Positions 2,512 through 6,542 of a stretch of DNA of 27,658 nucleotides are shown in pieces. The stretch is from positions 1-27,658 of IMG/VR virus record IMGVR_UViG_3300028025_000556, one strand, 5' to 3'. The notes below the pieces were generated by a model. The model was given only the letters and a program-made list of their open reading frames with translations, was not told the DNA's origin and did not search any database. This stretch comes from a virus. Its lineage: Duplodnaviria > Caudoviricetes. Position 1 is the stretch's first letter. Every line of letters begins with the position of its first letter. A program made the translations under genes and the position numbers.

Positions 2512-2916
2512 ATGCAAGACTTATTCGGCAATGAGATACCTGAACAACAAAAGAAAACAGACGAAGGCTTTGATGAATTCTGGTCTGTTTACCCTAAGTG
2601 CTTCAGAAAAGGTGAGAAGGCTGCTTGCAAGAAAAAGTGGGCTGAGTCTTACTACTTTTCTCAGAAGCACATCATCTTAAAACACGTTCAATGGATGGCA
2701 ACCACAACGGCCTGGTTAAAAGATAACGGGGCATTTATTCCAGCCCCTAAGGTTTATTTAAACCAACAGCGATGGGATGGCGCTGACATCCCTGATGTAA
2801 AGCCTAAAGACTTGATAGACCCCGCCCTGGCTAAGATTGAAGCTGATTCAAAGAAGGCCGCACCGATGCCTGATCACATAAGACAAAAAATTGCACAAAT
2901 GAAAGGTAGGTCATGA
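2512..2916 (+). CDS. Replication protein resembling the C-terminal domain of phage replisome organisers, 134 aa
   Basis: FDEFWSVYPK...K...W and FIPAPKVYLNQQRWD motifs; lambda O position; no N-terminal HTH visible. Confidence 0.7.
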   Translation: MQDLFGNEIPEQQKKTDEGFDEFWSVYPKCFRKGEKAACKKKWAESYYFSQKHIILKHVQWMATTTAWLKDNGAFIPAPKVYLNQQRWDGADIPDVKPKDLIDPALAKIEADSKKAAPMPDHIRQKIAQMKGRS

Positions 2917-3739
2917 ATGAGTTGGCTCTTTTCGCAGGCGCTGGTGGAGGAATTCTCGGAGGCCATTTGCTTGGATGGCGAACAGTCTGTGCAGTTGAAT
3001 GGGAACAATACCCCGCAAGCGTACTGTGCGCCCGACAAAATGACGGGCTTCTCCCGCCTTTCCCGATTTGGGATGACGTACAAACCTTTGACGGAAACCC
3101 GTGGCGAGGAATTGTTGACGTTGTATCGGGAGGCTTTCCCTGTACGGACATTTCCATTGCTGGACGAGGCGCAGGGCTTGACGGAGAAAGTTCCTCAATG
3201 TGGTATCACATGGCGAGGGTGGTTAGCGAAGTTAGACCCAGATTCGTATTCGTGGAAAACAGCCCAATGCTCATTCATAGAGGAATCGGGAGAGTGCTTG
3301 CAGACCTTTCCAGCCTCGGGTTTGACACGAGGTGGACTGTTATGGGAGCAAATGAGGTCGGAGCGCCCCATCAAAGGGACAGAACGTGGATTGTGGCGCA
3401 CTCCAGACAGGGGGGGGGGGGGACATCTGGACTTCTCAAACAAGGCCAGAATCATCGAAAGAATGGCCAGCCCATCCAAATCAGATTGGTGGATCAAGTG
3501 AACAATCCAAGACTCTGGCCCACACCAGTAGCGAGAATGTACAAAGACGGGGGAAGCCCAGCGGAATACGCCAGGAACGAGATACCCCTAGCGGCACAGG
3601 TTGGTGGGCCGTTGAACCCAGAGTGGGTCGAGTGGCTGATGGGGTGGCCGCAAGAGTGGACAGACTTAAAGCCATTGGCAACGGACAAGTTCCACAAGTG
3701 GTCGCAGCAGTCTGGAGGAAATTAAGTGAATCACTATGA
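2913..3739 (+). CDS. C5 cytosine DNA methyltransferase, alpha-type chain (motifs I-VIII and X), frame-disrupted at the G13 tract
   Basis: LFAGAGG (I), SGGFPC (IV), VENS (VI), APHQRDR (VIII) in the 2913 frame. Motif X (RLKAIGNGQVP) lies in the 3386..3739 frame. As sequenced, the 2913 ORF ends at 3725. Confidence 0.85.
2917..3725 (+). CDS. Overprinted MTase beta-type chain (WxTP repeats and motif IX), frame-disrupted at the G13 tract
   Basis: ATG 2917 in +1 frame (ATGAATGAG double start behind AAGGTAGG), open 194 codons to 3501. With one extra G it continues into LWPTP...LNPEWVEWLMGWP and stops at 3725. Confidence 0.65.
3410..3422 (+). repeat. G13 homopolymer tract
   Basis: 13 consecutive G; I saw no comparable homopolymer elsewhere in the window. 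Confidence 0.95.
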
Positions 3740-5324: not shown

Positions 5325-6542
5325 ATGCTAAAAATTGTGCAAAAGCCTGTAGATAAATTGATACCTTATGTCAACAACAGCCGCACCCACTCTGATGAGC
5401 AAATAGCCCAGATTGCCTCAAGCATCAAAGAATTCGGCTGGACTAACCCGATATTGGTAGATGGGGAGAACGGCATCATTGCAGGACATGGCAGGCTGAT
5501 GGCAGCAAGAAAGCTGGGCTACAAAGAAGTTCCCACCATCGAGTTAAAAGACCTGACAGAGACCCAGCGCAAGGCTTACATCATTGCCGACAACCGCCTG
5601 GCACTCAATGCAGGATGGGACAATGAAATGCTGACCATAGAATTGAATGATCTATTGGCAGACGGGTTTGCGCTAGAAATCTTGGGCTTTGACACTAAGG
5701 AACTAAACGCCCTGCTAGAGCCAGAGGTAGTGGAAGGGCTGACAGACGAGGATGCCGTTCCTGACATTCCTGATGAGCCTAAGACCAAGTTAGGCGACAT
5801 TTACCAACTAGGCAATCACCGCCTAATGTGTGGGGACTCCACTAGCATTGACGCTGTTGACAAGTTGATGGATGGGCAGAAGGCCGATATGGTGTTTACC
5901 GACCCGCCTTATGGCGTGGCTTATGAAGGTGGACATAATCAAAAGAAACGTAAAGGCATAATTGCTGATACTTTAGAAGGTGATGATCTAACAGGTTTGT
6001 TTTATGGTGCTTTAATGGCTGCTGTACCAAATACCAAGGATGGTGCGGCTTTTTATATTTGGTATGCCTCTGGCAAATCAATAGAAACTTATGCTGCATT
6101 ATCAAAATTGCCACTAAAACTTAGGGCGGTAATTCAATGGTACAAAGTAAAGTCTGGTCTTGGGGCTTTTATGTCTCAATATATTCCAAACTCCGAGCCA
6201 TGTATGTATTTGCATAAAGACAAATGCTCTCCTGCATGGTATGGCCCGACAAATGAAAAAACTGTTTGGGAATTAAAGAAAGAATCAAAAAATATTTATC
6301 ATCCAACTCAGAAGCCTGTTGAATTGCCAGAAAGAGCAATAAATAATTCAAGTAAGGGTGGTGATTTAATCCTTGATCTTTTTGGTGGCTCTGGAAGCAC
6401 ATTAATTGCCTGTGAAAAAATTAATCGTCATGCAAGATTGATGGAACTAGACCCCAAGTATTGCGATGTAATCGTTAAGCGTTGGGAAGACTTCACAGGC
6501 AAGAAAGCCGTTCTTTTGACAGAAACAGTAGAATCTGCTTAA
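5325..6542 (+). CDS. ParB/Srx N-terminal domain fused to an N6-adenine/N4-cytosine DNA methyltransferase (beta class)
   Basis: PYVNNSRTH...FGWTNPIL...IIAGHGRLMAA...ADNRL (ParB); DPPY, HPTQKPV, LDLFGGSGSTLIA; GAGGA RBS. Confidence 0.93.
   Translation: MLKIVQKPVDKLIPYVNNSRTHSDEQIAQIASSIKEFGWTNPILVDGENGIIAGHGRLMAARKLGYKEVPTIELKDLTETQRKAYIIADNRLALNAGWDNEMLTIELNDLLADGFALEILGFDTKELNALLEPEVVEGLTDEDAVPDIPDEPKTKLGDIYQLGNHRLMCGDSTSIDAVDKLMDGQKADMVFTDPPYGVAYEGGHNQKKRKGIIADTLEGDDLTGLFYGALMAAVPNTKDGAAFYIWYASGKSIETYAALSKLPLKLRAVIQWYKVKSGLGAFMSQYIPNSEPCMYLHKDKCSPAWYGPTNEKTVWELKKESKNIYHPTQKPVELPERAINNSSKGGDLILDLFGGSGSTLIACEKINRHARLMELDPKYCDVIVKRWEDFTGKKAVLLTETVESA

Follow-up and report, generated by a model that had tools for sequence, protein, structure and literature searches.

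A candidate two-frame heterodimeric C5 methyltransferase of phages, with a variable G run that may act as a phase-variation switch

The window, i.e., the whole stretch of DNA analyzed here, is a linear virus record of 27,658 nt. It contains a C5 methyltransferase gene in which two reading frames of the same strand overlap. We call alpha the chain that would carry motifs I–VIII plus X, and beta the chain that would carry motif IX and the likely DNA-recognition modules; the E-x-x-M-x-W-P block and GNGQVP are what we take to be motifs IX and X, respectively. The features of the locus are as follows.

2512–2916, plus strand: upstream ORF of 134 aa with a weak match to replication-initiation PHROGs; its TGA (2914–2916) overlaps the alpha ATG and abuts the beta ATG.
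2903–2910, plus strand: SD-like AAGGTAGG, 5′ of both starts, with an anti-SD pairing of −3.9 (alpha) and −6.6 kcal/mol (beta).
2913–2919, plus strand: ATGAATG double start, with the alpha ATG at 2913 and the beta ATG at 2917.
2913–3725, plus strand: ORF of 270 aa, the alpha front joined through the G run to the beta back, with putative recognition modules and motif IX but without motif X.
2928–2948, 3129–3149, 3255–3263, and 3369–3389, plus strand: motifs I, IV, VI, and VIII, respectively, in the ORF that starts at 2913.
2917–3501, plus strand: ORF of 194 aa, the beta front followed by a short tail in an otherwise unused frame, ending at TGA 3499–3501.
3386–3739, plus strand: ORF of 117 aa from a GTG, the alpha back (free linker, and motif X at 3665–3694), stranded in a third frame in this copy.
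3394–3408, plus strand: WRTPD in the beta frame, the putative head of recognition module 1.
3410–3422, plus strand: run of 13 G (9–18 G in relatives), out of frame in this copy.
3423–3501, plus strand: otherwise unused frame that is kept stop-free in alleles with the tract.
3488–3501, plus strand: SD-like GGTGGA (3488–3493) and GTG 3498–3500 overlapping TGA 3499–3501, a candidate re-initiation site.
3498–3725, plus strand: candidate 75-aa peptide with module 2 (WPTP, 3516–3527) and the motif IX block (3615–3650).

The 270-aa ORF is a member of the C5 methyltransferases (PF00145, E = 7e-29, residues 4–166, with motifs I, IV (PC), VI, and VIII). The initial annotation took this ORF for alpha and described a second chain in the +1 frame that overlapped it along nearly its whole length. 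As described, the +1 frame runs without a stop through motifs I, IV, VI, and VIII; when the first 166 alpha codons were randomized, it stayed open in 29 of 20,000 cases under phage codon usage and 4 of 20,000 under uniform usage. However, the +1 ORF ends at 3499–3501 after 194 aa, without the motif IX block, i.e., the near-complete overlap is absent from the window copy. The ORF at 2913–3725 proved to be a fusion of an alpha front and a beta back without motif X, the frame switch at the poly-G run having been overlooked. The motif-IX-like block (3615–3650) sits in the frame of 2913, and GNGQVP (3665–3694) in the frame of the ORF at 3386–3739. Two PHROG profiles are split accordingly: phrog_363 matches residues 1–185 of the ORF at 2913 (profile 54–236) and residues 33–114 of the ORF at 3386 (profile 238–313), and phrog_1008 matches residues 34–163 of the ORF at 2917 (profile 9–138) and residues 233–253 of the ORF at 2913 (profile 262–282). 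The window copy is thus out of register, and the profiles cross over, because of the G13 run at 3410–3422; in the 27,658 nt, no other homopolymer reaches 7 nt (G or C) or 8 nt (A or T). With 11 or 14 G at this position, the near-complete overlap is obtained: alpha becomes 274 or 275 aa long and has motif X, and beta becomes 268 or 269 aa long and has motif IX. We therefore rejected the possibility that the 270-aa ORF is an intact monomer or an intact alpha, given that motif X is outside its frame and that the run is where the profiles cross over.

To describe the family, we used the best 80 of 576 related viral loci, consisting of the 20 closest and 60 more distant loci. Among the more distant loci, motif X was in the alpha frame in 57 of 60, and two others were cut by contig ends. 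In L041, the frames are swapped, with the beta front joined to motif X and no long homopolymer, and L048 has a stop in beta. In relatives that are in frame (e.g., L081), motif X is in the chain that bears motifs I–VIII, and the second chain is nested within the alpha gene in a different frame, as in M.EcoHK31I; in the window, motif X is outside that chain, and the locus is out of register. As a separate observation, six of the best 150 beta-like database proteins had motif X without the motif IX pattern.

The conservation of both frames and the suppression of synonymous variation in homologues had been proposed as a check of the two-frame reading, and both frames were found to be under purifying selection in 95 distinct collinear alleles. 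Over the first 160 codons, these alleles contained no stops in alpha, one in beta, and 877 in the third frame. The initial annotation had stated that frequent +1-frame stops among homologues would speak against it; silent alpha changes able to stop beta yielded one stop versus approximately 763 expected (1,786 allele-sites), a contrast whose significance is overstated by the relatedness, and hence non-independence, of the alleles. In 45 independent pairs, substitutions that were silent in alpha and changed beta occurred at 0.069 (transitions) and 0.035 (transversions) per opportunity, versus 0.179 and 0.157 for substitutions silent in both frames, so the former were 2.6 to 4.5 times rarer. On the 3′ side of the tract, the roles reverse (43 pairs): the values were 0.002 for beta-altering and 0.046 for alpha-altering changes, and no alpha stop was found among 578. 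Full-length dual coding on the same strand, with selection on both frames, is rare, and these sequence comparisons support the view that two chains in overlapping frames are maintained by selection in this family.

All 60 in-frame alphas matched PF00145, and the profile aligned to M.HhaI (E = 4e-18). Beta has 0–4 modules per chain, headed by WxTP and in shuffled combinations. We infer that these are recognition modules and that the middle of alpha is a linker. The mid-section is kept in beta and free in alpha, and the M.EcoHK31I arrangement, in which the TRD is in alpha and beta has only motif IX, was therefore not found here. The heterodimeric methyltransferase proposed in the initial annotation is consistent with the family as a whole, given the selection on both frames and the predicted complex, but not with the window copy, which is out of register. 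As to the complex, a structure prediction of alpha with beta from the in-frame relative L081 gave a score of 0.88, versus 0.00 for the best of three controls; 116 of 157 solved complexes, compared with 2 of 215 mismatched pairs, attain the mark set for this score. At least 71% of the contacts were common to the runs, the pLDDT of the partner was at least 57, and the motif IX block packed against motif X in the model. This score may stem from the likeness to solved monomeric C5 methyltransferases. The AlphaFold models of beta alone and of the 270-aa window chain (pLDDT 42 in both cases) were too poor for use. The beta profile had no match in Pfam or among solved structures, and the motif-X ORF had none among the families and solved relatives searched. 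It had also been predicted that annotation would miss one of the chains, and this was so in all three GenBank records inspected. In MW202462, alpha is annotated and beta is omitted, and in Ralstonia phage Gerry and Pseudomonas phage phPA-G (L208, MT740739.1, and L209, PP083311.1), only beta is recorded, as a hypothetical protein, and the catalytic alpha is omitted.

The ATGAATG double start with the upstream TGA (2914–2916) inside it is read directly from the sequence, as first described. The beta ATG is kept in 95 of the 95 distinct alleles, and the alpha start is ATG in 68, TTG in 13, GTG in 7, and TTA in 7. In 100 distinct upstream sequences, a single SD-like core lies mostly 3–6 nt 5′ of the alpha start, i.e., 7–10 nt 5′ of the beta start. 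This spacing suits both starts, and it is plausible that they have an RBS in common. The overlapping TGA ends the upstream gene in only 38 of 83 testable upstream contexts, and a universal coupling to the upstream stop was thus rejected. Two other features of this region were observed. In L001 and L005, there is an extra beta-frame ATG about 27 nt upstream, the product of which also begins with MSWL, and the alpha start there is TTG. In the window, two abutting ORFs (137 and 134 aa, 2098–2916) precede the methylase, where L162 and L207 have a single ORF of 233–258 aa.

The G run was present in all 20 closest loci of the best 80 of 576. All of its lengths were taken from assemblies, and Logan contigs are blind to mixtures of lengths within a sample. 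Among 83 related alleles with the tract, the length ranged from 9 to 18 G, and the three phases were represented by 25, 28, and 30 alleles. We also considered 84 distinct contigs, including the window, in 64 of which the phase could be read, the other 20 being cut too near the run. These 64 consisted of 22 in frame (two of them tract-free), 21 with the phase of the window, and 21 with the other phase (20/21/21 for tract-bearing contigs). In a metagenome scan that allowed any 9–18 bases at this position, 44 of 44 were pure G or T+G runs, with phases of 13/13/18. Versions of the tract peptide with G-A-G-G, G-Q-G-G, and G-S-G-G exist. For the same module, each of the 15 alleles without a tract was in frame, versus 26 of 83 alleles with a run. 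The run is not forced by a Gly-Gly-Gly in both frames, since these 15 tract-free codings exist and the alpha linker is free. The alleles with the tract may share one origin. On a tree of 49 contigs with full flanks, the phase was scattered (22 changes, versus a shuffled mean of 23.1), and the sole match in GTDB, a Burkholderiaceae MAG, was out of frame. The 58 out-of-frame copies contained no further stops versus approximately 21 expected, and their pattern of selection was unchanged; the window copy has no second lesion either, and its interpretation as a decayed pseudogene was rejected. A coding repeat that varies in length among near-identical genomes, as expected of a contingency locus, was found at the level of assemblies. 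The absence of decay and the scattered phases fit reversible off states, but assembly error predicts the same. Long homopolymers were also seen elsewhere in the dual-coded gene of other family members (L049, L058, L061, L065, and L078): a G11 about 250 nt into alpha, a C13 near the module junction, and a G8–9 in the glycines of motif I. These may be independent switch sites.

The third frame behaves differently in alleles with and without the tract. From the run to 3501, it is stop-free in 81 of 83 tract alleles (one of the two exceptions, the G7 allele L025, belongs to the tract-free type), and it contains a stop in 14 of 15 tract-free alleles. A TGA overlapping a beta-frame GTG ends this frame in 82 of 83 tract alleles versus 6 of 15 tract-free alleles. 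What is novel here is that the third frame of the tract alleles is open up to a stop that overlaps a fixed GTG (3498–3501). On a tree of the 83 alleles, silent changes that make a third-frame stop 3′ of the tract arose once, versus 16.4 expected, and downstream of the GTGA they arose 4.4 times versus 5.6 expected. At one Val codon, there were six origins of GTC and a single origin of GTA. With either codon, alpha has Arg and beta has Val, and a third-frame stop results from GTA alone. When real sites were resampled, P was about 8e-4 for stop avoidance and 0.013 for the fixed GTG, in a post hoc test that involves four sites and possibly one clade. The anti-SD energy of GGTGGA is −4.9 kcal/mol in the window and on average is no stronger in tract alleles than in tract-free ones, and an in-frame NTGA also precedes 12 of 39 internal modules of tract-free relatives. 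A possible reading of the pattern is that a 75-aa peptide, comprising module 2 and motif IX, is made by re-initiation. The signal favors real frame switching, because translation of this frame would occur chiefly in out-of-frame alleles or following slippage. A dedicated third start 5′ of the run, at GTG 3386 or 18 codons before it, was not supported: it was present in 84 of 87 alleles of the clade but also in 41 of 45 distant tract-free relatives, and it follows from the Trp codons of alpha.

The interpretation that we favor, and regard as probable with some reservation, is a heterodimeric phage C5 methyltransferase encoded in two overlapping frames, with a contingency-type (phase-variation) switch at the G run. 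In the in-frame state, both chains would begin 4 nt apart at ATGAATG. The run would slip during replication, so that progeny would alternate reversibly between an intact enzyme and out-of-frame states, and both chains would exchange their back halves simultaneously upon a one-base change. The long chain of the window state has no motif X, and we predict that it is inactive or weak unless GTG 3386 is used. We infer an off or weak enzyme because truncated M.SssI fragments are inactive alone and complement each other in pairs, according to the available text of PMC3404938. In the other out-of-frame state, every motif would still be made if ribosomes re-initiated at GTG 3498. This interpretation presumes the translation of both chains, their binding and activity, switching in vivo, and evasion of host restriction.

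A bolder version, which we consider possible but doubtful, is a switch of specificity that uses three frames. When in frame, the enzyme would use modules 1 and 2, and in the +1 state it would methylate only target 2. In the latter, the alpha front would read the third frame to the GTGA at 3498–3501, the 75-aa peptide would be re-initiated, and the beta front would bear motif X, giving a three-piece enzyme. Such a state is plausible because C5 methyltransferases, such as M.AquI and other split enzymes, can assemble from separate inactive fragments (PMC3404938). The window state would be off in this version, or rescued by GTG 3386.

An alternative that we consider unlikely is that the phages are truly in frame and have a plain two-frame methylase, and that the spread of lengths is Illumina and assembly error. 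According to PMC8808543, homopolymers can show spurious indels in Illumina data, above all when they exceed 14 bp. Several features of the assemblies point in this direction. Miscall-like bases occur at the edge of the run in L086, L112, L128, L130, L131, L155, and L008, and at G 3410 of the window, and 15 of 32 contigs cut upstream start at the run or just 3′ of it. A contig of run X1 (depth 138) that has four differences in 427 nt from the window (99% identical) is in frame, and therefore the phase of the window itself may be an error. The absence of decay and of clustering on the tree also fits. Among contigs with identical 217-nt flanks, 18 of 37 pairs disagreed in length, a result equally compatible with fast switching and with noise. 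Against error, the lengths are flat over 11–13 G, without a dominant in-frame mode, and some identical phages repeatedly give the same out-of-frame length (five of six in the L122 group, although these may share reads). Error also does not account for the retention of a pure run in a clade in which many pairs are < 88% identical and tract-free codings exist. The avoidance of third-frame stops is likewise left unexplained; a sequencing artifact alone would not yield it, which favors the switch.

We regard it as quite improbable that the run is an unselected hot spot, i.e., that a Gly-coding stretch turned into pure G on one occasion and at present disrupts a gene that the phage can do without, with the broken copies reverting or being lost fast. 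A single origin of the tract is compatible with the data, slippage can purge interruptions of homopolymers without selection, and the gene is accessory, one X1 contig skipping 2880–3749. Two thirds of the copies are out of frame, yet purifying selection is strong, also in pairs that are both out of frame. In addition, about 26 silent changes interrupting the run would be expected, in a set filtered for runs of ≥ 9 G; none was found in the unfiltered 44, and one was found in L107. Finally, it is very unlikely that polymerase or ribosome slippage gives all frame combinations, so that the phase in the DNA is nearly neutral and tunes the enzyme level: the even thirds, the absence of decay, and the open third frame would be expected if every phase yielded some full enzyme, and a tuning role has been proposed for the BPP-1 methylase G tract (cited in the available text of PMC4791379), but a neutral phase alone gives no reason for the fixed GTG at the end of the third frame (82/83 vs. 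6/15).

The favored reading, a two-frame enzyme with a phase-variable run, has counterparts in several known systems. In the literature outside subscription papers, we found no description of this two-frame phage family, of its G tract, or of a run that shifts two overlapping chains. The C5 methyltransferases of Bacillus phages SPR and phi3T are multispecific, monomeric, and single-frame, with tandem exchangeable modules between motifs VIII and IX. The family described here resembles them in its tandem exchangeable modules, of which each beta has 0–4, headed by WxTP and shuffled. The parts of M.AquI are encoded in separate genes, and their frames do not overlap. Its split also differs in position, lying between motifs I–VIII and IX–X as far as the available source goes. 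M.EcoHK31I (E. coli HK31, YGGCCR) is the closest in layout, with two chains from alternative frames of one gene, motifs I–VIII and X in alpha and IX in beta, and beta nested in alpha, as in the phage family when in frame (available text of PMC2836561 and PMC3404938). The phage system differs in that the chains start 4 nt apart and are of near-equal length, the variable modules are in beta, whereas the TRD of M.EcoHK31I is in alpha (same sources), it is phage-borne with no restriction enzyme among the 12 window ORFs scanned, and the G run shifts both frames. M.EcoHK31I could be rescued by translation from internal starts (PMC2836561). Variable G tracts are described in phage genes, including the methylase of BPP-1, BIP-1, as well as BMP-1 (phages of Bordetella) and the polyG tracts of Fletchervirus (available parts of bioRxiv 10.1101/2025.10.21.683753 and PMC4791379). 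These phage contingency loci are similar in having a variable homopolymer as a frameshift hot spot within a gene. As described there, however, the BPP-1 and Fletchervirus genes are single-frame (the BPP-1 gene being an adenine methylase, PMC4791379), whereas one slip here would swap the back halves of both chains. The out-of-frame HNH of ShiLan in actinophage methylases is also a hidden product of an alternate frame, but it is a selfish insertion, and the available text of PMC11855218 and PMC9957025 mentions neither a beta subunit nor a homopolymer switch.

Several features of the surrounding genome were also recorded. The methylase gene acts like a cassette that can be exchanged. In 158 loci, 100 different 30-mers occur upstream of it, and in one X1 contig (depth 10), 2880 is joined to 3749, so that the whole methylase is skipped. 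A second methyltransferase, with a ParB N-terminal domain fused to an N6/N4 methylase domain, is located at 5325–6542, before the terminase genes. Over both strands of the whole window, palindromes and related sites are strongly avoided: CGCG (6 vs. 106 expected), CCGG (12 vs. 89), GGACC (0 vs. 20), and GGCACC (0 vs. 24). The depletion of palindromes was considered as a pointer to the methylase target and failed to identify it.

The family defined by beta is large: its profile matches 17,536 protein clusters (50% identity) at E = 1e-10 or better, as well as 102 of 50,697 GenBank phage records, and it has no Pfam model, annotations recording one chain only. With a hypermutable run that shifts both chains at once, a phage population may be able to hedge its bets where some hosts cut unmethylated DNA and others cut methylated DNA. 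If re-initiation in the third frame is true, it would represent a novel mechanism for changing the specificity of DNA recognition, in which one run would reprogram the sites that are methylated.
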